Assembly (NCBI GenBank): GCA_024239035.1
Contig: JANBVK010000001.1
Span: forward strand, 506,202-570,201
DNA: 64,000 bases
From: Patescibacteria group bacterium
GTDB taxonomy: Bacteria; Patescibacteriota; Minisyncoccia; UBA6257; GWB1-50-10
Reading direction: 5' to 3'
Positions 19,695 to 53,512 of the stretch are shown piece by piece. The position numbers and the translations under genes are program-made. The notes under the pieces are model-generated. The model was given only the letters and a program-made list of their open reading frames with translations. It was not told the DNA's origin and did not search any database. How positions within the stretch are numbered: the stretch's first letter is position 1; each line of letters starts with the position of its first letter.

Positions 19695-20147
19695 TCAAGC
19701 CGCGGCTGCTTCAGGAATTAACTCTCTCGACAGTGTGCCGAGGGCGATATGTATTGCCCATTCTTCAATGGATTCACGAGAGGAGAATTGTTCTCGCCAC
19801 CGGTTATCGAGACCTCTTTTTAAGAATGCTCTAGATATCATATTTACGTCATCTATCACAACGTTGTGGGTTCGGCGTCTTAGCTCATCGATGTTTTGGA
19901 CACTTTCGCGGTATCGTTCAGGGTCGTAGGAAAGCCTTTTGCTAAAAACCGCAAGCCTGAGGATTGTTTCAATATATCGTATACAATCCTCTTTGAGTGT
20001 TTCAAGTTGTTCTGTGAGCGTCTCGTCTTCTCTTGTCTCAGCAGTCGATTCTAATTGCTGTAGAAGCGGGTCGTATTCTACCGGCACGGGTTCTTTTCCC
20101 AGTACTTCTTCATGGAATTCTCCAAATAATTCTGGTCCTTTTTCCAT
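19695..20147 (-). CDS. Hypothetical acidic protein (150 aa) abutting tRNA-Lys
   Basis: The ORF start is 2 nt from the 3' end of tRNA-Lys(CTT). Acidic Glu/Leu-rich N-terminal half. Confidence 0.4.
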   Translation of the reverse strand: MEKGPELFGEFHEEVLGKEPVPVEYDPLLQQLESTAETREDETLTEQLETLKEDCIRYIETILRLAVFSKRLSYDPERYRESVQNIDELRRRTHNVVIDDVNMISRAFLKRGLDNRWREQFSSRESIEEWAIHIALGTLSRELIPEAAAA

Positions 20148-20148
20148 G

Positions 20149-20221
20149 TCCGCCCGGTAGGGCTCGAACCTACGACCGTTTGCTTAAGAGGCAACTGCTC
20201 TACCAACTGAGCTACGGGCGG
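20149..20221 (-). tRNA. tRNA-Lys (CTT)
   Basis: Reverse complement CCGCCCG-TA-GCTCAGTTGGTAGAGC...CTCTTAA...GTAGG-TTCGAGC-CCTAC-CGGGCGG-A. Anticodon CTT. Confidence 0.8.
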
Positions 20222-20274
20222 TTGTTGATAAGTCGCGCCTTACAGTATACGGGATTTGTTATAATTATCAAAGA

Positions 20275-20559
20275 ATGAACGGAGAATTAAAACCGACGGC
20301 GGGGTCAAAGACTCCACTTATCATTGTAATTGTTGTCGTTATTCTTGTCATTGCGGCAGTTATTTATTGGTATCTAGTCTTAAGGGGTCCCGCAACCCCA
20401 CCCGTAGTCGAGACACCAACGGCGGAGATTACCTCGCCGGATTTAGGAAGTGAACTTTTTGAGAGATCGTCCAACCCTGTAAGCGGTCAGCTGCCGGATA
20501 CCATTGCTCCGGTTCCAAACCCGCTTGAAGGTATTTATGAAAATCCGTTCGGGGGTTAA
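20275..20559 (+). CDS. Small membrane-anchored Pro/Thr-rich protein
   Basis: TM helix LIIVIVVVILVIAAVIYWYLVL. Lies immediately upstream of the Cys-rich protein. Confidence 0.4.
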   Translation: MNGELKPTAGSKTPLIIVIVVVILVIAAVIYWYLVLRGPATPPVVETPTAEITSPDLGSELFERSSNPVSGQLPDTIAPVPNPLEGIYENPFGG

Positions 20560-20571
20560 ACGTGGAAACCT

Positions 20572-22650
20572 ATGACTTACAACTTAAAGTTTTTAATTAG
20601 GCACTTTAGATTAATTCTCTCCGTTGCCGTTTTGGTCGCGGGGATTATTTTATCTTATGTTGTATTTGCCCAAGATTTAGGTTCCGGCGAACCGACCGAT
20701 GAAGAACTCCGAGTTGCCGGCATTACGTTTCCTATTGCCGAGTTGGGTAATTGTGCGAGCAAAAGCGAATGCCACGATTACTGTAATGACACTGCGAACA
20801 TGGGTGTCTGCATTTCTTTTGCAAAAGCGCATGGCCTTATGAATGAGACAGAGGCAGCTCATGCAGAACAATTTAGAGGGCGGATGGAGTCCGAAGGTGG
20901 GCCTGGCGGATGTCGAAGTCCGGTGGATTGTGAGGCGTACTGCAGTAATATCACTCACATAGAGGAATGTATTGCCTTTGCTGATGAGCAAGGCTTTGAT
21001 GAACCTGAAATTAAGGAAGCGAGAAAGATCGCAGCTTACTTAAGAGCGGGTGGAGAGATGCCTGGCGGTTGTACCTCTGAAGCATCTTGTATGGAGTACT
21101 GTGGTGACTTCAGTCACGCTAGGGAATGTTTTGAGTTTGCGACACGTGCCGGCCTTGCACAAGAGGATGAATTCGGAGATGAAGATGATATACCTTCGCC
21201 AGAACAGTTCCAAAAGCTTATAGAATTAACAGAGCGAGGTGAGACGCCTGGAGGGTGTCAAGGAAGACTCGAATGTGAGTCGTATTGCCGAGACTCCGCG
21301 CACTTTGAGGAATGTATCGCTTTTGGTGAGAAGATGGGTTTTATTGGTCCTGAGGAGGCAGCGATGGCACGGAGGACCGGGGGAGTCGGTCCTGGTGGGT
21401 GTAACTCTCATGAGTCCTGCACGGCGTACTGTAATAATCCCGCGAATCAGGAAAGTTGTTTCAAATTTGCCGAGGATCATGGACTTATTCCCGAAGATGA
21501 GCTAAGACATGCGCGCGAAGGATTTGTAAGCTTGCGTCAGGGGCTTGAGCAAGCACCGCCAGAGGTACACGCCTGTCTGAGGTCAGTCTTAGGTCCAAAC
21601 ATTATTGAGGACATTCAGGCGCAAAGACTTACACCAGGTCCTGAGATTGGTGAGCGAGTTCGTGGCTGCTTTGAAGATTTTGGTCATCGGAATGACCCGC
21701 GCGAGGCATTCGGAGACGCGCCACCAGAGGTGATTGCTTGTCTTCAAGATAAGCTGGGGGTTAATACTTTCAGTGGTATACGTAGCGGTGAAATATTTCC
21801 GACTCCTGAGATGGGGGACGTGTTCCGCGTGTGTTTCGAGAGCGTGCGGTTTGAAGAGAAGGGATTCTTTAGTGGGTCCGATGGCCCGGGGGAGTTTGGT
21901 GGCCCCCCGCCGCAGGAAATTCGGAATTTTATAAGAAGTGCCCCACCTGAGGTTAAGGTTTGTTTGAGAGAAAAACTAGGAGGAGATCTTGAAAGATTGG
22001 GGAGCGGAGACGCGTCATTTCCTCCCGAGTTTGGGGAGTATATGCGTGGTTGCTTCGAGTCATTCGGCCCACCAGAACACGAAGGGGATGAAAGTTTCCG
22101 CCCACCCGGGTTTCAACCCGGAGTCCCTCCCTCCGATGTTTTTGAACCGCGTGTCGCGCCGCTAGATTTTAGTAATTTACCTCCGGAAGTAATTGAGTGT
22201 GTCAAATCAACGGTAGGGGTGAATCTTTTAGATACTGTGCGGGGGGAAGAACTTACTCCTGATATAGGGGAACGTGTTAAGTTATGTTTTGAGAAGCTGC
22301 AGTCAAATATTGCTCCGTTCCCGCGACCTGGTGATAGTGTAGTTTGCATTCAAGTAATTACTCCGGCCCACGATCCTGCAACAGGAGTTTGTAAGAAATT
22401 TTCCACCCCCTGTGATGTACCATCCGGTTGGCTCAGTGGTTGCCCGGTAAAGAGCGATTTATCATTACCTCCGACAACAGTAGTAGAACCTACTCCGGAA
22501 CCGACTACGATTCAGTTTGATCCGGTTGAGGAATGTACTAAATCCGGCGGCACTTTTATACTAGAGGACGGGTCGTGTGTATTATCATCTACAGAAACGG
22601 GGGGAGGAAGCCTTTTAGACGCAACAAAGAGATTTCTTTTCGGACGATGA
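20572..22650 (+). CDS. Secreted/anchored Cys-rich modular protein (5 C-x5-C-x3-C-x9,10-C modules plus 4 PPEV..C...CFE modules plus a C-terminal Cys-rich region)
   Basis: N-terminal signal/anchor, then internal tandem repeats visible in the translation. No known family recognised. Confidence 0.6.
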   Translation: MTYNLKFLIRHFRLILSVAVLVAGIILSYVVFAQDLGSGEPTDEELRVAGITFPIAELGNCASKSECHDYCNDTANMGVCISFAKAHGLMNETEAAHAEQFRGRMESEGGPGGCRSPVDCEAYCSNITHIEECIAFADEQGFDEPEIKEARKIAAYLRAGGEMPGGCTSEASCMEYCGDFSHARECFEFATRAGLAQEDEFGDEDDIPSPEQFQKLIELTERGETPGGCQGRLECESYCRDSAHFEECIAFGEKMGFIGPEEAAMARRTGGVGPGGCNSHESCTAYCNNPANQESCFKFAEDHGLIPEDELRHAREGFVSLRQGLEQAPPEVHACLRSVLGPNIIEDIQAQRLTPGPEIGERVRGCFEDFGHRNDPREAFGDAPPEVIACLQDKLGVNTFSGIRSGEIFPTPEMGDVFRVCFESVRFEEKGFFSGSDGPGEFGGPPPQEIRNFIRSAPPEVKVCLREKLGGDLERLGSGDASFPPEFGEYMRGCFESFGPPEHEGDESFRPPGFQPGVPPSDVFEPRVAPLDFSNLPPEVIECVKSTVGVNLLDTVRGEELTPDIGERVKLCFEKLQSNIAPFPRPGDSVVCIQVITPAHDPATGVCKKFSTPCDVPSGWLSGCPVKSDLSLPPTTVVEPTPEPTTIQFDPVEECTKSGGTFILEDGSCVLSSTETGGGSLLDATKRFLFGR

Positions 22651-22683
22651 TACAGGAGTTTAGAATTTTGGATTCAAAACTAA

Positions 22684-22709
22684 AAAACCGCCAACGAGGC
22701 GGTTTTTTA
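22684..22709 (+). terminator. Rho-independent terminator (AAAAAACCGCC-aacga-GGCGGTTTTTT), bidirectional
   Basis: A-run, GC stem and T-run. Lies between the Cys-rich gene and the convergent tRNA. Confidence 0.75.
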
Positions 22710-22714
22710 TTATG

Positions 22715-22786
22715 TGCCCCCGCCAGGATTCGAACCCGGAATTCAACGTCCGAAGCGTCGCGTGATATCCGTTTCACTACGGGGAC
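22715..22786 (-). tRNA. tRNA-Arg (TCG), tentative isotype
   Basis: Reverse complement GTCCCCG-TA-GTGA...TCAC-G-CGACG-CTTCGGA-CGTTG-AATT-CCGGG-TTCGAAT-CCTGG-CGGGGGC-A. Loop read gives anticodon TCG. Confidence 0.65.
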
Positions 22787-45167: not shown

Positions 45168-48100
45168 ATGAAGATAAGAACCAAAAAAGCTATTATAATA
45201 GGATTTTGTTTGCTTTTCGGACTTGGATTTTTTCTCCCAGCATTCGTTTTTGCTCAAGACGCTATTTCTGCGGTGGATCCAATTTTTCCTTCTTGGATGA
45301 TTGATGAGAGCGGAACGCATTTTGAGATAAACAATAACCCCTTTCTTGACCTCACGGTTGATAGCTCGGAGAATGTCCAGCTACAAATAGAGTCGATGCC
45401 GGAGATGGTAGTGATGATAATCGAGTCGGACTCTTCCGCTATTTCAAGCCAGATAAGTGTAAAAGGTCTTGAACCATCAACTACCTACTATAAATATGAA
45501 GATAGCTACCAAAATAGCGTGACTATCGATACTAGCAGTTCAGGAACCCTTACGTTTAGTCAGGATTTGTCGGTTCCACATATTATCTTTATACAAAAGA
45601 ATAAAAGCACCAAATTCATAAGAGATGACCTAACTGGTGGCGATTGTACAACAATAGGAATTTGGGATGTGACTACAAAAACTTGTACTCTCACTACCGA
45701 TGTTTTTGAGACGATTCAGATAGATAGTAACGATATCACACTCGACGGTAACGGTCATAGTATCTTTGGGGGAGGCATAGGAGTTTTTCTAGTTAGGAAG
45801 ACCGGAGTCACTGTTGAAAATCTTAACGTCAGAGGGTTTAATTCAGGAATTCTCTTATTCAGTTCGAATTTCAATAACTTACTCAATAATTCTTTGAGAC
45901 CCAACCTTACTGGAATTTCTCTATCGGGGACTAGCAATAATAATACAATTAGTGGTAATAACGTCTCATTAGGTGAGATAGGAATTTCTCTTCTGAGAGG
46001 TACAGGTAACAATAATGTTATTAACAATACTACATCGAATAATCGAAACGGCATCTCTCTCGGTCAGTCCGATGGTAATAGTTTAATAAACAACGTTGCC
46101 AATTCGAATAGTCGTTCTGGGATTAGCCTATCCGCTTCTAAGGATAACGTTCTAACTGATAATATCGTGCAGGAGAACGGGGAGGTTGATTTGGGTTTCG
46201 GAGCAAGTCAGCTCATCGATTGTGCTAATACAATTCAAGGGACTATTGGTTCTGGCAATAAACCGTTTGAGTATTTTAATTCTGTTGTAGATTTAAACAA
46301 CAAAACTCTTTCGGGATTAATACTTTGTGATGCTGACGATTCTAAAATTAGTGGTGTAGCAGTTGCTGGTTCAGGTACTAAGAAGAATAACGGTATATCA
46401 CTCCATTTTACGGATAATTCAATTATTGAGAACACTACTTCATCGGATAATCGCCAAGGCATTTCCTTTTTTAATTCAACTAATAACATTGTTAATAACA
46501 GCACCTTCGCAGAGAATGCTCTTCGGGGAATTTTTGTTGTTTCCAGGTCACCGTCTAATGAAATTGTTAATAATAATTTCATTAATAATGCCTTTCCACC
46601 TTTTGTTCAGACGAGGAGTGAGAGCGTCTTTAATTTACCCTTACCTGTTGGCGGTAATCACTGGAGTCGTTTCGATTCTCCGGCGGAAGGATGCGGTGAT
46701 GCTGATAACAACAGTATTTGCGACGCTCCGTTCGTCTTTTCGGGAGGGCAGGATAATTTCCCATTCGTGAATCGGGATGGCTGGAAAATACCTATAGTTA
46801 GAGAGCCGGTGGTTATTGTGCCAGGGATTATAGGCACAAAACTAAATAGAGTTTTGGATGGTAAGGAAGTTTGGCCACGAGTAAATACAATGATTACTTC
46901 CAGTACCGATGACTATTTAGACGAACTCAAGCTTACTGTAAACGGTACTCAGACGACAGGAAAAGAAATGAACCCTTCTAGAGTTATTGAAGAAGAATCT
47001 GTTTTGTTTTTTAACTTTGTATTCTACAAGAACCTCATAGATAACTTCAAAAATCAAGGATACGTGGAAGGCACAACACTTTTCACGGTTCCCTACGACT
47101 GGCGACTGGATATTCAAGATGAAGTAAATAGGTTAGACAGTGTAATCCAGCAGGCAATCGCAGAGTCCCTGAACGGCAAGATAGACATTATTGCCCACAG
47201 CATGGGAGGCCTGTTGGTAAAAGAGTTATTGGCAAACGCCACAAGCACAGTTTTCGTGAATAAACTTATTCTTGCGGGAGTGCCACAACTAGGTGCATCC
47301 GGAACATTTAAAATATTAAATTTCGGTGACAACCTTGGTTTTGAACTTGGACCGATTGATATCTTGAATTCTGAACGAGTGAAAATCATTTCCCAGAACA
47401 TGCCAGGTGTGCATGAACTTCTTCCAAGCGAGCGATACGTCCAAATAAACGGTGGCTATGTAAAAGATTTTAGAAACGGAATACAGATATTGGACTTTGA
47501 TCAAACAGAACAATTTATGATTGATGACGGAAGAAACCCTCTCTTGCTTAGTGAAGCCGATGCGTTTCACCAAGGATTAGACAATCAAGCGTTCAATGCA
47601 CCCGAGGTACACAATATAATGGGGTGCCAAAATCCTGAAACAATTTTTGGATTCAATATTTATGATAACAATGTAATTGATGTAACCCGAGATCAGGGGG
47701 ATGGCACAGTGCCACTCACGAGTGCCATCAATCTTTCCGGAGATTTTACTAATTATTTTGCTCTTCACAACGAAACAAACATAGATCATCTTGATTTGAT
47801 ACGAGACAGTCGTCCGATTGATCTTATCAATGACATTATCAATGAAACAGGAGATCCTCTACCGCAAGGAATCTCAACATCCACCATTGATTGTTTTGAT
47901 ACACCTGCCGTATCCGGAAACGAAACAACCATATCTTTCAGCCTCCATAGTCCTGCACAGCTTAATGTCTTTGATTCACAAAACAATCATACGGGGTTCA
48001 ACGAAGATGGTGATATCGACTTGCAAATTCCTGGAAGCAGCTTTGAAACAATAAACGGAAACAGCTTCGCGCTTGTGCCAGCAGGCGACACCTACCGAGT

Positions 48101-48944
48101 AGAAATCCAAGCGTTATCAGAGGGTGACTTTACCTTGAAAACCAAAACCTTCAACGGCGTCGCGATTATAGACGCGGTGACTTACGTAAACATCCCGCTC
48201 CCAAGCAATCAAACTCAGGCAGAACTTACCTTTACAGACACACAAGGAAATTTGACATTGAACGTTGATAATGACGGAGATGATATTATTGATGTTACTT
48301 TCCAACCAAACGCTATACTTGACGCTACGAGTAGTTTGGATATTACGCCGCCCGATATCACCATAGTATCTATTCCACCCGAAATCCTCTTGAACACAGA
48401 CTTCGTGTTTACTTTTAATGCAACTGATGATCTCTCGGGTGTTGAGGTACTCAAAGCCACGCTTGATGGTAACCCTGTAAGCAGCGGAGATACGATTACG
48501 TTGTCAGAAGTTGGCGACCACCTTTTCAGAGTTGAGGTTACAGACAAAGCAGGCAACCCCAGAGTAGAAGAAATAGGATTTAAAGTAGTTTATGATTTTG
48601 GTGGTTTTCTTTCGCCACTGCAGAAAAAAACTCTGGTATTCCAAGCGGGACGCAGTATACCAGTGAAGTTTCAATTACGAGACGTGAATAATAGTGTTAT
48701 TTCAAACGCGAGTGCATCTCTCTTTTTCGCTTTTCTCACTAATGGGGAATCAGGCACTTTCCAACCAGCAGTATCAAAAGGAAAAGCAAATATAGAAAAT
48801 CAATTCAGATTTGATCAAGAAGAACAGCAATATGTCTATAACTTGAATACAAAATCTTTAACTCCTGGAGATTACCGCTTAAGAGTTGATTTAGATGACG
48901 AAACCTCGAAATTCATAGACGTAGAACTGCGGAGCAATAAGTAA
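45168..48944 (+). CDS. Giant secreted multidomain protein: signal peptide, parallel beta-helix repeat region, a PGAP1/LCAT-like alpha/beta-hydrolase (lipase-like) domain, and Ig-like/Big domains
   Basis: 1258 aa. N-rich beta-helix repeats (NNTISGNNVSLGEIGISL...). Nucleophile elbow IIAHSMGGLL at about aa 670. C-terminal ...ATDDLSGVEVLKATLDGNPV...VTDKAGNP Ig-like pattern. Confidence 0.7.
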   Translation: MKIRTKKAIIIGFCLLFGLGFFLPAFVFAQDAISAVDPIFPSWMIDESGTHFEINNNPFLDLTVDSSENVQLQIESMPEMVVMIIESDSSAISSQISVKGLEPSTTYYKYEDSYQNSVTIDTSSSGTLTFSQDLSVPHIIFIQKNKSTKFIRDDLTGGDCTTIGIWDVTTKTCTLTTDVFETIQIDSNDITLDGNGHSIFGGGIGVFLVRKTGVTVENLNVRGFNSGILLFSSNFNNLLNNSLRPNLTGISLSGTSNNNTISGNNVSLGEIGISLLRGTGNNNVINNTTSNNRNGISLGQSDGNSLINNVANSNSRSGISLSASKDNVLTDNIVQENGEVDLGFGASQLIDCANTIQGTIGSGNKPFEYFNSVVDLNNKTLSGLILCDADDSKISGVAVAGSGTKKNNGISLHFTDNSIIENTTSSDNRQGISFFNSTNNIVNNSTFAENALRGIFVVSRSPSNEIVNNNFINNAFPPFVQTRSESVFNLPLPVGGNHWSRFDSPAEGCGDADNNSICDAPFVFSGGQDNFPFVNRDGWKIPIVREPVVIVPGIIGTKLNRVLDGKEVWPRVNTMITSSTDDYLDELKLTVNGTQTTGKEMNPSRVIEEESVLFFNFVFYKNLIDNFKNQGYVEGTTLFTVPYDWRLDIQDEVNRLDSVIQQAIAESLNGKIDIIAHSMGGLLVKELLANATSTVFVNKLILAGVPQLGASGTFKILNFGDNLGFELGPIDILNSERVKIISQNMPGVHELLPSERYVQINGGYVKDFRNGIQILDFDQTEQFMIDDGRNPLLLSEADAFHQGLDNQAFNAPEVHNIMGCQNPETIFGFNIYDNNVIDVTRDQGDGTVPLTSAINLSGDFTNYFALHNETNIDHLDLIRDSRPIDLINDIINETGDPLPQGISTSTIDCFDTPAVSGNETTISFSLHSPAQLNVFDSQNNHTGFNEDGDIDLQIPGSSFETINGNSFALVPAGDTYRVEIQALSEGDFTLKTKTFNGVAIIDAVTYVNIPLPSNQTQAELTFTDTQGNLTLNVDNDGDDIIDVTFQPNAILDATSSLDITPPDITIVSIPPEILLNTDFVFTFNATDDLSGVEVLKATLDGNPVSSGDTITLSEVGDHLFRVEVTDKAGNPRVEEIGFKVVYDFGGFLSPLQKKTLVFQAGRSIPVKFQLRDVNNSVISNASASLFFAFLTNGESGTFQPAVSKGKANIENQFRFDQEEQQYVYNLNTKSLTPGDYRLRVDLDDETSKFIDVELRSNK

Positions 48945-51052: not shown

Positions 51053-53512
51053 ATGAAAGAGAAAAAAAATACTCTTCGTAGCGAGGTTAAATTAAGCGAC
51101 GCGAGAATTAACAGAAGTTTTTCGGAAAATGCCTTGAAGATGATGCGCAAGCGTTATCTTTTTACCGACGAAAAAGGTAATCAGGAGACTTCCGCCCAGA
51201 TGTTTCATCGGATTGCCCGCACTTTAGCTGAAGTTGAGAAAAATTACGGTCACAATGCGCAATTTGTAAAGAAAGTTGAGCGCGACTTCTTTGAAATTAT
51301 GGCTGGTAAGGAATATACACCCGCTGGGCGGACGATTACAAACGTCGGAACACCTACATCCCTTATCGCGAACTGTATTGTTTTGCCAATTCACGATTCA
51401 ATGGAGAGTATTTTTCAAACCTTAAAGGATGCATCTCTTCTGCAGCAAGCCGGTTCGGGTTTAGGCTTTTCTCTTGATGAACTCAGGCCGTCAATGTCGC
51501 CGACAAAACGGTCGCGAGGTTCCTCGTCCGGTCCGGTTTCATTTTTAAAAATTTACAACGAAGCTTTTAGTACAATTAAACAGCAGGGGCGTCACGGTGC
51601 GAACATGGCAATGATGAGCGTTGATCATCCCGACGTTTTGGACTTTATCCGTTCAAAAGCAGTAGAAGGAGAGATTAGAAACTTTAATATATCTATTAAG
51701 GTGACTGATAAGTTTATGAGAATGGTGGAGGAGGAACCGGATGAGCAATGGTATTGTACGTGGAAAGGTAAAAAGTCAAAACCCAGTAAAGTTCTTCGGC
51801 ACCCGAACGGAAGTGTTTACGGGTCAGAGGATATCAACATTACGGTTGGCGAACTTTTTAACGAAATTGTTGAATACGCTTGGACAAACGGGGAACCGGG
51901 TATAGTTTTTATTGATACTGTAAACAAATCAAATCCTTTGCCGGGCTTAGGGCGAATTGAGTGTTCTAATCCTTGCGGTGAACAGTTTTTACACTCCTAC
52001 GATAATTGTAATTTGGGATCGATTAATCTGGCCACCCTTGTTAAAGATAAGCAAGTTGATTACGAGCGACTTAGATTTGTGGTGAAGACTGCAGTACGGT
52101 TTATGGATAACGTGATTGATAAGTTTGATTTCCCGGTTAAGAAAGTTACCGCCTTAGCGCGTAAGAATCGCCGGATCGGTTTGGGAATTATGGGGTTTGC
52201 TGACATGCTTTTCCAACTCGGCATTAAATACAATTCTGAAGAAGGATACGCTACAGCAGGAAAAATAATGTCAGTCATTCAAGAATCAGCTCATAGAATG
52301 TCTCAGGAGCTTGCTGAGGAGAAAGACGTTTTTCCCAATTACCCAAAGAGTATTTTTGCAGAAAAGAAAATAAAAATGAGAAACGCTGCCCTGACTACCA
52401 TTGCTCCAACTGGTTCTATTGCTATGATGTTTGATTCTTCTTCCGGTGTGGAACCGAACTTTGCTTTAGCCTACATCAAACAAGATAAGGATGGTGTGCA
52501 GTACCAATATCTCAATAGATATTTTGAGGAAGAACTTCGGCGTCGGACATTTGATGAGGTAACCATTTCAGAGATTAAAAAGGAGATTGTTAAAACCGGC
52601 AGTATTCAAAACCTTGATTATCTACCCCAGGATCTCCGTGATACGTTTGTGGTTGCAATGGATATACCAGGTGAAGATCACATTGGAATGCAGGCCGCGT
52701 TTCAAAATCATATTGATAATTCTATTTCCAAGACTATTAATCTCCCGAATAGTGCAACCCGGGAGGACGTTAAGTCCAGCTTTCTTCAGGCGTGGAAGTT
52801 GGGGTGCAAGAGCTGCACGGTCTATCGGGACGGCAGCCGCAACATTCAAATTTTAAACCTGGGAACGGGAGAGAATATAAAATCAACCACTGAGGCACCG
52901 ACAGGAGAGAATTCACCGGAAGAAACTAACCTTGACCTAGAGATAGACAAAGGGAAGCTCTCGCCAAGAGCTCGGCCGATGGTTATGGAGGGAAAGACCT
53001 ATAGGGTAAAAACCGGCTATGGCAAGCTTTATATCACAGTTAATAATGACGAAACCGGAGTGCCTTTTGAGGTATTCGCGACAATTGGGAAGAGCGGCGG
53101 TTTTTTCCAGGAGCAAAGCGAGGGTATTTGCCGGCTTATTTCCTTGTCTCTCCGAGCCGGCATTAAAGTTGAAGAAATTATCGATAACTTAAAAGGCATT
53201 CGCGGACCAATGCCTGTGTTTTCTGATAAGGGAACAATTCTTTCATTGCCGGATGCTATCGGGCAAATACTGGAAGAACATGTTCGGAAAGAAATACCAA
53301 AAGCGGAACTGCCGGCGGGTTCTAAAGTTTCTGAGGCGGCCGTGGTAGCAGCAAAAGTAGATTTGGATTTTCTTAAGAAAGAAAATGAAATTAAAGGAGA
53401 ATCACTAGCCGATAACGGAATGATGCCAGGTTGCCCGGATTGTGGTGCGTCCCTTCAGGTAAGTGAAGGGTGCTTGAATTGCCGAAGCTGCGGCTTTACG
53501 AGATGTACGTAG
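51053..53512 (+). CDS. nrdJ: Adenosylcobalamin-dependent (class II) ribonucleotide reductase with a C-terminal zinc ribbon
   Basis: 819 aa monomeric RNR core (…NCIVLP…, GLGFS, active-site Cys region). C-terminal CPDC...CLNCRSC. Confidence 0.85.
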   Translation: MKEKKNTLRSEVKLSDARINRSFSENALKMMRKRYLFTDEKGNQETSAQMFHRIARTLAEVEKNYGHNAQFVKKVERDFFEIMAGKEYTPAGRTITNVGTPTSLIANCIVLPIHDSMESIFQTLKDASLLQQAGSGLGFSLDELRPSMSPTKRSRGSSSGPVSFLKIYNEAFSTIKQQGRHGANMAMMSVDHPDVLDFIRSKAVEGEIRNFNISIKVTDKFMRMVEEEPDEQWYCTWKGKKSKPSKVLRHPNGSVYGSEDINITVGELFNEIVEYAWTNGEPGIVFIDTVNKSNPLPGLGRIECSNPCGEQFLHSYDNCNLGSINLATLVKDKQVDYERLRFVVKTAVRFMDNVIDKFDFPVKKVTALARKNRRIGLGIMGFADMLFQLGIKYNSEEGYATAGKIMSVIQESAHRMSQELAEEKDVFPNYPKSIFAEKKIKMRNAALTTIAPTGSIAMMFDSSSGVEPNFALAYIKQDKDGVQYQYLNRYFEEELRRRTFDEVTISEIKKEIVKTGSIQNLDYLPQDLRDTFVVAMDIPGEDHIGMQAAFQNHIDNSISKTINLPNSATREDVKSSFLQAWKLGCKSCTVYRDGSRNIQILNLGTGENIKSTTEAPTGENSPEETNLDLEIDKGKLSPRARPMVMEGKTYRVKTGYGKLYITVNNDETGVPFEVFATIGKSGGFFQEQSEGICRLISLSLRAGIKVEEIIDNLKGIRGPMPVFSDKGTILSLPDAIGQILEEHVRKEIPKAELPAGSKVSEAAVVAAKVDLDFLKKENEIKGESLADNGMMPGCPDCGASLQVSEGCLNCRSCGFTRCT

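Follow-up and report, generated by a model that had tools for sequence, protein, structure and literature searches.

What could a secreted, cysteine-rich repeat protein do for a bacterium when its repeats match no recognisable family? The question was raised by a gene in a 64,000-nt stretch of DNA (the window) from a Patescibacteria group bacterium (assembly GCA_024239035.1, contig JANBVK010000001.1, positions 506,202 to 570,201 of the forward strand). The gene encodes a protein of 692 amino acids (aa) with the sequence of GenBank entry MCP6720221.1, hypothetical protein KJI72_02810. A preliminary description of the window had read it as an exported protein of tandem Cys modules and had suggested a cell-surface or host-interaction factor of an episymbiont-like organism. 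The organism fits that picture, as the window belongs to a Patescibacteria/Parcubacteria metagenome-assembled genome. We found that the gene is one half of a widespread two-gene surface cassette, which is specific to Parcubacteria and brings two undescribed modules. We favour, with moderate confidence, the explanation that the protein serves outside the cell as a disulfide-stapled scaffold or in adhesion, together with an NPF-tailed membrane anchor encoded directly upstream.

Secreted Cys-stapled repeat proteins have precedents as a kind; the cassette and its modules are what is new here. Parcubacteria (class Paceibacteria) are among the most abundant uncultured groundwater bacteria, and to our knowledge almost nothing is known about their cell surface and their contacts with other cells. 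The cassette is a candidate core component of their envelope or of their attachment, and one that can be tested. Both modules lie outside curated families and solved structures, which makes them targets for Pfam entries and structural work. Should the large protein turn out to be merely a lineage-specific structural surface protein, the gain would be a better annotation of thousands of "hypothetical proteins".

The gene pair, its modules and its distribution

The elements of the cassette are given below with coordinates in the window. For the modules, the independent E-value (i-E) of the module hidden Markov models (HMMs) is added, together with the predicted local distance difference test score (pLDDT) of the AlphaFold2 model where it was noted.

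20275..20559, + strand: partner gene, 94-aa single-pass membrane protein (open reading frame (ORF) list)
20572..22650, + strand: main gene, 692-aa secreted acidic protein with 34 Cys (ORF list)
20572..20670, + strand: signal peptide, aa 1-33, with basic n-region, 20-aa hydrophobic core and V-F-A/Q cleavage-type site (sequence)
20731..20880, + strand: module A1, aa 54-103, Cys 61/67/71/80 (HMM i-E 2.1e-19; pLDDT >90)
20893..21039, + strand: module A2, aa 108-156, Cys 114/120/124/133 (HMM i-E 4e-21; pLDDT >90)
21049..21183, + strand: module A3, aa 160-204, Cys 167/173/177/186, followed by an acidic linker (HMM i-E 1.2e-18; pLDDT >90)
21235..21381, + strand: module A4, aa 222-270, Cys 229/235/239/248 (HMM i-E 1.9e-19)
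21379..21522, + strand: module A5, aa 270-317, Cys 277/283/287/296 (HMM i-E 1.2e-20)
21550..21687, + strand: module B1, aa 327-372, Cys 335/366 (HMM i-E 1.5e-20)
21718..21852, + strand: module B2, aa 383-427, Cys 390/421 (HMM i-E 1.2e-20)
21937..22074, + strand: module B3, aa 456-501, Cys 464/494 (HMM i-E 7.2e-20)
22174..22305, + strand: module B4, aa 535-578, Cys 543/572 (HMM i-E 2.5e-14)
22342..22446, + strand: four-Cys beta mini-domain, aa 591-625, C-IQVITPAHDPATGV-C-KKFSTP-C-DVPSGWLSG-C (strands 597-600 and 607-610, pLDDT about 92-95)
22600..22647, + strand: C-terminal tail GGGSLLDATKRFLFGR, a short amphipathic helix preceded by Pro/Thr-rich sequence (helix 683-690, low pLDDT)

The small upstream ORF is an obligate partner of the large gene. 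When we scanned 84 related loci with an HMM of the small protein, a copy lay directly upstream on the same strand in all 83 assessable loci, the one left out starting at a contig edge, and no further copy was found within +/-6 kb of each locus. The partner stop codon in the window precedes the ATG of the large gene by 12 nt with both ORFs in the same frame; over all 23 in-frame cases the gap ranges from 3 to 108 nt, with 3-27 nt being typical. The reciprocal check, starting from small-protein homologues on long contigs (including Niyogibacteria and Giovannonibacteria), found the large gene to be the next one in 3/3 cases, encoding proteins of 572-679 aa with 6-7 A modules and one B module. The preliminary description had already pointed to a small membrane-anchored ORF just upstream, and this constant pairing upholds its relevance.

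The small protein begins with a short cytoplasmic end, crosses the membrane with a helix that has YWY at its end, and continues outside in a Pro-rich tail, which contains three NP[VLF] motifs (...NPVSGQLP...PNPLEGIYENPFGG) and ends with ...YENPFGG. Strong conservation is confined to the NP motifs, with N82, P83, N90 and P91 being invariant, and to the extreme C-terminus (Y/F)KNPF(E/Q); 0-2 residues follow the last NP-x in the homologues. Three NPF-tailed small proteins (P0280, P0300 and P0312) carry the JGI label "flagellar basal body-associated protein FliL". The small protein of the window gave only sub-threshold FliL matches, over the transmembrane helix, and the label is probably a propagated mis-annotation.

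The large protein is very acidic (115 Glu and Asp versus 59 Lys and Arg), and all 34 Cys fit the described pattern of tandem modules of two types followed by a Cys-containing tail. Module A is present in five units with the spacing C-x5-C-x3-C-x8-C. The first two gaps had been correctly given before; the last one had been taken as 9 or 10 residues and is 8 in all five units. Likewise, the GGC start ascribed to the modules does not apply to the first unit, which opens with LGNC. Module B has the form PPEV-xx-C...(28-30 residues)...C-F-E and occurs in four units with two Cys each. In a six-frame scan of the whole window, A units scored i-E 1.2e-18 to 4e-21 and B units 2.5e-14 to 1.2e-20, and elsewhere nothing scored better than E about 1; the HMMs were built from relatives with the window's own modules in the training sets, making this test partly circular. 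The tail contains six Cys, at 592, 607, 614, 624, 655 and 669. Its mini-domain at aa 591-625 is without a Pfam or PDB match, and the pattern C-IQVITPAxDPxTGxC-xxFxTPC-DVPxGW-xxxC was seen in a subset of relatives only (loci L001, L005 and L015).

Read from the sequence, the N-terminal signal peptide with its A-x-A type site places the protein in the class of Sec-exported proteins. The hydrophobic helix spans aa 5-32 in the AlphaFold2 model and is followed by V-F-A/Q, in agreement with the N-terminal signal noticed earlier; the family consensus at the same spot is A-x-A-Q. The signal peptide is probably cut after V-F-A, in the manner of Sec export and type I signal peptidase. At the other end, the protein resembles LPXTG wall-spanning surface proteins in having a signal peptide, N-terminal functional repeats and a Pro-rich segment before a C-terminal element. 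Unlike those, it has no LPxTG, C-terminal transmembrane segment or basic tail, and terminates in the short amphipathic helix GGGSLLDATKRFLFGR. C-termini of the family are amphipathic rather than transmembrane, which sets the family apart from sortase-anchored proteins. The C-terminal helix may bind to a membrane or to a partner.

The family extends throughout Parcubacteria. A word-indexed search retrieved 554 homologues at E <= 1e-3, the best being 39-57% identical over 67-100% of the length. None of their labels was informative, one reading generically "proline-rich domain-containing protein". Named sources of homologues and loci were Liptonbacteria, Colwellbacteria, Jorgensenbacteria, Lloydbacteria and other Parcubacteria. 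When one genome per species was scanned with a narrow peptide pattern, 183 species proved to have a relative, now including Kaiserbacteria, Nomurabacteria, Wolfebacteria, Yanofskybacteria, Harrisonbacteria, Sungbacteria, Niyogibacteria, Brennerbacteria and Wildermuthbacteria. We also ran an exhaustive HMMER search with a 52-position profile of module A against 1.84 billion cluster representatives (50% identity clusters). In total, 1,909 proteins passed E <= 1e-3, of which 1,096 also passed E <= 1e-30, and single proteins contained as many as 13 copies; those with names were all from Parcubacteria. At least 13 candidate phyla contain the gene pair. The survey of genomes of the candidate phyla radiation (CPR), which had been proposed as a check, uncovered a lineage-wide family with a constant small gene upstream. 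Locus L078 (DYHP01000008.1) is labelled Candidatus Methylomirabilis and many cassette loci are labelled "uncultured Candidatus Saccharibacteria". As the family is otherwise strictly confined to Parcubacteria, placeholder taxonomy or mis-binning seems to be behind these labels.

Members of the family, as we defined it, have four or more A modules and, in most cases, one B module or more, with the gene of a small, NPF-tailed membrane protein located immediately upstream; the window has five A and four B modules and such a partner. Among 84 relatives, 4-7 A modules and 0-4 B modules are followed by Pro/Gln-rich low complexity and then by an amphipathic helix, with the consensus ...PPPP..SLLG.IL.PF..LL.R, or by a Cys-rich C-terminus. 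Seven loci (L030, L035, L037, L039, L040, L044 and L045), including some from genomes of the Nomurabacteria and Lloydbacteria types, have the ending C..FA.VPSCSYVPE..R..C.KCKG instead of the amphipathic helix, and a related variant, ...AVPSCSYVGPAGSQNYNYCKQCFPDK, was observed in L075 and L083. Other relatives are extended at the N-terminus, ahead of their A modules, or have shortened A modules together with Gly-rich linkers. In some longer relatives, a Kazal domain or a Laminin_G_3 domain (LamG, concanavalin-like lectin; E 1e-25 to 2e-28) is added. The small gene was also present beside a LamG-bearing variant, where the two genes overlap by 4 nt. Such relatives show that the module array is used in extracellular, binding-type proteins.

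Could the repeats have been created by an assembly error or the ORF be spurious? The preliminary description had named artefactual repeats as a way in which its reading could fail. We regard this as having a negligible chance. Pairwise identity between A units is only 21-38% at the protein level, and the DNA repeats inside the ORF are imperfect matches of 14-28 nt plus one 21-nt tandem array with a period of 11. Because the units are diverged and the DNA repeats minor, with near-identical DNA repeats being absent, the repeats do not result from collapsed or duplicated assembly; they are ancient. Proteins of the same architecture come from hundreds of independent assemblies, and the structure prediction is confident. 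The high G+C content of the gene had been noticed correctly (0.49 against a mean of 0.44 for the 47 ORFs of the window), and there is nothing special behind it. The excess is confined to codon positions 1 and 2 (z +1.2 and +2.3), so it reflects the Gly/Pro/Ala/Glu-rich composition. G+C at the third codon position is normal for the genome (z -0.07), which speaks against a spurious ORF and by which we ruled out the horizontal transfer that the higher G+C might have suggested.

Predicted fold and cysteine chemistry

The AlphaFold2 model of the 692-aa protein, calculated from a 78-sequence alignment, has a mean pLDDT of 80 and a predicted template modelling score of 0.56, with A modules above 90 and B modules mostly at 70-95. 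The protein is all alpha-helical up to residue 580. In the modelled A module, a short helix bearing Cys2 and Cys3 is followed by a turn, a longer helix with Cys4 and a third, connecting helix, and Cys1 is located in the P-G-G-C loop directly before the first helix. The B module is modelled as a set of three to four helices, of which the first and the last carry one Cys each. Beyond the mini-domain, the tail is Pro/Thr-rich and disordered in the model until the short amphipathic helix at the end. The predicted fold is thus one of short alpha-helical hairpins and three-helix units, and neither a knot nor a zinc knuckle.

The earlier statement that the protein has no recognisable family withstood searches by sequence, profile and fold. 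At E <= 10, Pfam-A returned only AtDEF-like for the 692-aa protein (E 8.8, 7 bits versus a cut-off of 25), and NCBIfam returned no match. Thresholds were reached for no family in either collection, including EGF-like, anaphylatoxin, Sel1, TPR, DUF326/Csp, saposin and metallothionein. AtDEF-like in the relatives was mostly at or below threshold; in the relative P0048, with 25.9 bits against the cut-off of 25, no stretch passed alone (0 stretches), and the scores appear to be driven by Cys composition. Against all PDB sequences, phmmer with the whole protein gave a best E of 2.3, the module A profile (47 sequences) 2.1 and the module B profile (32 sequences) 0.044. Foldseek against PDB found nothing below E 0.06 and only generic PPR/TPR-type solenoids with a TM-score of about 0.1. 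A shared origin of modules A and B was rejected as well, hhalign giving a probability of 0.3% and no relationship. In a full-text literature search we found no description of the A/B-module family; a CPR protein-family survey mentions Parcubacteria-enriched hypothetical membrane families, among which this family was not identified.

The arrangement of Cys on helices is reminiscent of twin CX3C/CX9C (CHCH) hairpins, such as Tim9/10, Cox17 and other Mia40 substrates, which share a helix-turn-helix, likely two disulfides and C-x3-C on one helix. Two CX3C or CX9C on antiparallel helices are the mark of that class, whereas module A has a single CX3C, its two remaining Cys being placed on helix 2 and in the loop that leads into the CX3C helix. 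Moreover, A modules are tandem, extracellular and bacterial, and no sequence or fold match connects the two. Nor do the modules have the two CxxC or CxxH knuckles on beta-hairpins that define a zinc knuckle or ribbon, as they contain no CxxC pairs and are helical in the model.

Conservation of the Cys is nearly absolute. All four Cys are retained in 2,197 of 2,232 module A instances, most of the others being truncated alignments. In the 78 aligned relatives, all 20 A-module Cys and Cys 335, 366, 390, 421, 464 and 494 are invariant, C543 and C572 of B4 are nearly so (at least 90%), and the tail Cys are variable. Since the quartet is almost never broken, naturally lost Cys pairs gave no indication of disulfide connectivity. 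Of 332 family proteins, 314 have an even total of Cys. Cys beyond the modules are present in 249 proteins, and in 229 of these (92%) their number is even as well. This parity is in part built into modules of four and two Cys and was counted among related sequences. Even parity of non-module Cys is a classical signature of an oxidising compartment. With its 34 Cys and their paired conservation, the 692-aa protein thereby shows the features of Sec-exported disulfide proteins. Two Cys about 30 residues apart, as in the B modules, also suit a staple and not a metal site. In addition, CPR bacteria have been reported to be enriched in MdbA-like thiol-disulfide oxidoreductases, often beside VKOR (bioRxiv 10.1101/335083). 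Because of the non-module parity, the spacing in module B and this reported oxidation system, we favour reading the family Cys as disulfides rather than as metal sites.

The converse assumption, that the array is an extracellular metal-binding or storage protein, would have each A module coordinate Zn, Cu(I), Fe or Ni through its four thiolates together with the His and Glu-Glu close by. The protein would then buffer or scavenge metals at the cell surface in the way of a helical metallothionein or of Csp-type copper storage. The almost unbroken Cys quartet would be expected for such sites, as would the strong acidity. Within the motif H-x-E-E-C, the consensus has a His that precedes Cys4 by four positions. 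When the proteins were aligned over their full length, E185 showed no variation and H182 was conserved to at least 90%. The organisms that carry the gene are generally known to be anaerobes. In anaerobes, exported thiols can stay reduced. However, the C-x5-C-x3-C-x8-C spacing is devoid of the paired CxxC knuckles typical of Zn sites, the two-Cys staple of module B and the even number of Cys outside the modules remain to be accounted for, and a disulfide-forming system has been reported in these bacteria. No metallothionein, Csp/DUF326 or metal-binding Pfam family was found at E <= 10. Csp1 and Csp3 are indeed helical and Cys-rich with C-x3-C on helices, and Csp1 is exported; yet they are single four-helix bundles with a Cys-lined core that match DUF326, in contrast to separate four-Cys mini-domains without such a match. 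Metal binding is therefore, in our view, an improbable function. The preliminary description had left the choice between metal binding and a disulfide knot; the even Cys parity agrees with its disulfides, and the predicted helical hairpins and three-helix units disagree with both the knot and a zinc knuckle.

Candidate functions of the secreted array

How might the two proteins work together? The large protein would leave the cell via the Sec pathway, its signal peptide being cut after V-F-A. Outside the cell it would form a chain of small alpha-helical modules, A being held by two disulfides and B by one, which would probably be made by an MdbA/VKOR-type oxidation system. The product would be an elongated, acidic helical array at the cell surface, resistant to proteases and stress, followed by the Pro-rich segment and the short C-terminal amphipathic helix. 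The small protein could serve as membrane-anchored partner or tether of this array, and the array could be retained through the Pro-rich segment and C-terminal helix, through the small protein, or through both. We infer such surface retention, contact between the two proteins and a scaffold or adhesion role. The array may then act as a conserved envelope scaffold or binding platform, to which some lineages add lectin-like or inhibitor-like domains. A close precedent is offered by Helicobacter Hcp/Sel1-like repeat proteins, which are likewise secreted tandem alpha-helical hairpins, each disulfide-stapled, and are thought to be binding scaffolds.

A more specific and rather doubtful version is a peptide-recognition or tethering system universal in Paceibacteria, in which A repeats, B repeats or both bind the NP-x motifs and the (Y/F)KNPF(E/Q) tail and thereby build an envelope layer or attachment organ. 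A helical-repeat protein and a partner with a conserved extreme C-terminal peptide are also found in the recognition of the EEVD of Hsp70 and Hsp90 by TPR proteins. This analogy is purely functional, with no homology found and no docking predicted in one fusion run. If this version were true, two domain families and a bacterial system of short linear motifs would be added to those known, and there would be a handle on the surface architecture of uncultured symbionts without a conventional outer membrane. An NPF tail read by helical repeats would be a new motif-and-reader pair in bacteria.

Several observations weigh against a disulfide-stapled scaffold with a membrane-anchored partner. No search gave a functional anchor for the 692-aa protein by homology. 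The Cys parity is weakened by its built-in part, and the anoxic groundwater home of many of these organisms makes metal-binding, reduced thiols possible. As for contact between the two proteins, the tail of the small protein was not docked on the large one in an AlphaFold fusion, which left the tail at pLDDT <50 in what was a weak test (cis fusion, monomer model, an 81-row unpaired alignment and three small-protein homologues only). The number of NP motifs correlated weakly with that of A modules (rho 0.27-0.36) and negatively with that of B modules, with phylogeny confounding both correlations.

A host-specific adhesin, in which the array would be the attachment organ of an episymbiont binding a host surface molecule and the small protein would have nothing to do with tethering, is an unlikely alternative to the scaffold, with about the same prospects as peptide recognition. 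It would suit an exported repeat protein in a lineage thought to be symbiotic, and the module number varies from 4-7 A and 0-4 B among the 84 relatives up to 13 A elsewhere. The LamG lectin-like domains added in relatives also keep an adhesive role possible. Against this, host-specific adhesins usually diverge fast and are often multi-copy, whereas the A and B modules are well conserved, at about 40-57% identity across candidate phyla, and the large gene is present in one copy within +/-6 kb at each locus. In the same genome pairs, the large protein is 43% identical as compared with 62% for RecG; it evolves faster than RecG and yet is well conserved for a surface protein. Furthermore, its position beside recG and the str operon is often kept, and an adhesin of this kind leaves the strict coupling to the small gene unexplained. 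The host-interaction role suggested in the preliminary description is at most a candidate one: with its single copy per locus, conserved position and retained identity, the protein resembles a conserved envelope component more closely than a rapidly diverging, host-specific adhesin.

Even less probable than metal binding is a carrier of lipids or other hydrophobic ligands, which would bring host lipids to a bacterium unable to make them, like prosaposin, plant non-specific lipid-transfer proteins (LTPs) or insect odorant-binding proteins. Small, disulfide-stabilised helical domains, strung in one exported precursor as in prosaposin, are a general resemblance, here with two disulfides per domain in tandem. 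CPR bacteria generally do not synthesise lipids. A very weak PBP_GOBP match in one relative (E 0.0097, below the cut-off) and a large LCAT-domain protein encoded in the window could be counted on the same side. On the other hand, an A module is only about 50 residues long and consists of three short helices, and the hydrophobic positions conserved in it are few (Y, F, A). It is too small for a cavity, and the surface is highly charged. Saposins with six Cys and LTPs with eight have other patterns and a lipid cavity, and neither profile nor fold of the modules matched them.

Surroundings of the cassette

The features flanking the two genes are the following.

20148-20221, - strand: tRNA-Lys
20257..20265, + strand: extended -10-like element TGTTATAAT, 9 nt before the ATG of the small ORF (direct reading)
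22681..22709, no strand assigned: hairpin AAAAAACCGCC-aacga-GGCGGTTTTTT with a 12-bp stem and flanking A-run and T-run, between the ORF stop and tRNA-Arg
22714-22786, - strand: tRNA-Arg

The element TGTTATAAT has no good -35 and was missed by the consensus promoter scan, and no Shine-Dalgarno sequence was seen between it and the ATG of the small ORF. It is a candidate promoter that possibly gives a leaderless or near-leaderless transcript of the cassette. The terminator-like hairpin and the tRNA-Arg gene had both been described downstream and are present; the hairpin could be a bidirectional terminator. Regulatory RNA around the cassette was not detected by Rfam, which gave three tRNAs only.

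In many lineages the cassette lies between recG on its upstream side and an M50 peptidase gene with rpsL-rpsG-fusA-tuf on its downstream side, and a CCA-adding enzyme follows it in the window and at some other loci. The neighbours in other lineages are unrelated (NiFe hydrogenase, PMT glycosyltransferase, fmt/def). We therefore rejected the wider neighbourhood as a functional clue, the small gene being the only constant neighbour. Between recG and tRNA-Lys, the window contains a 150-aa ORF (19695-20147, - strand) that is missing from most related loci and has a sub-threshold DUF3232 match (E 3e-5, 24.4 bits versus a cut-off of 27.4).

Two further genes of the window were noted. A 1,258-aa protein (45168-48944, + strand) combines a NosD/right-handed beta-helix at aa 189-343 with an LCAT-type domain at aa 566-755 and is a candidate secreted lipid-acting enzyme of an organism expected to scavenge lipids. 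The ribonucleotide reductase of the window (51053-53512) is class II-like, with 819 aa, a TSCPD domain and no intein domains; the ribonucleotide reductase near the cassette at locus L001 (1-3203) bears an intein with a LAGLIDADG endonuclease.

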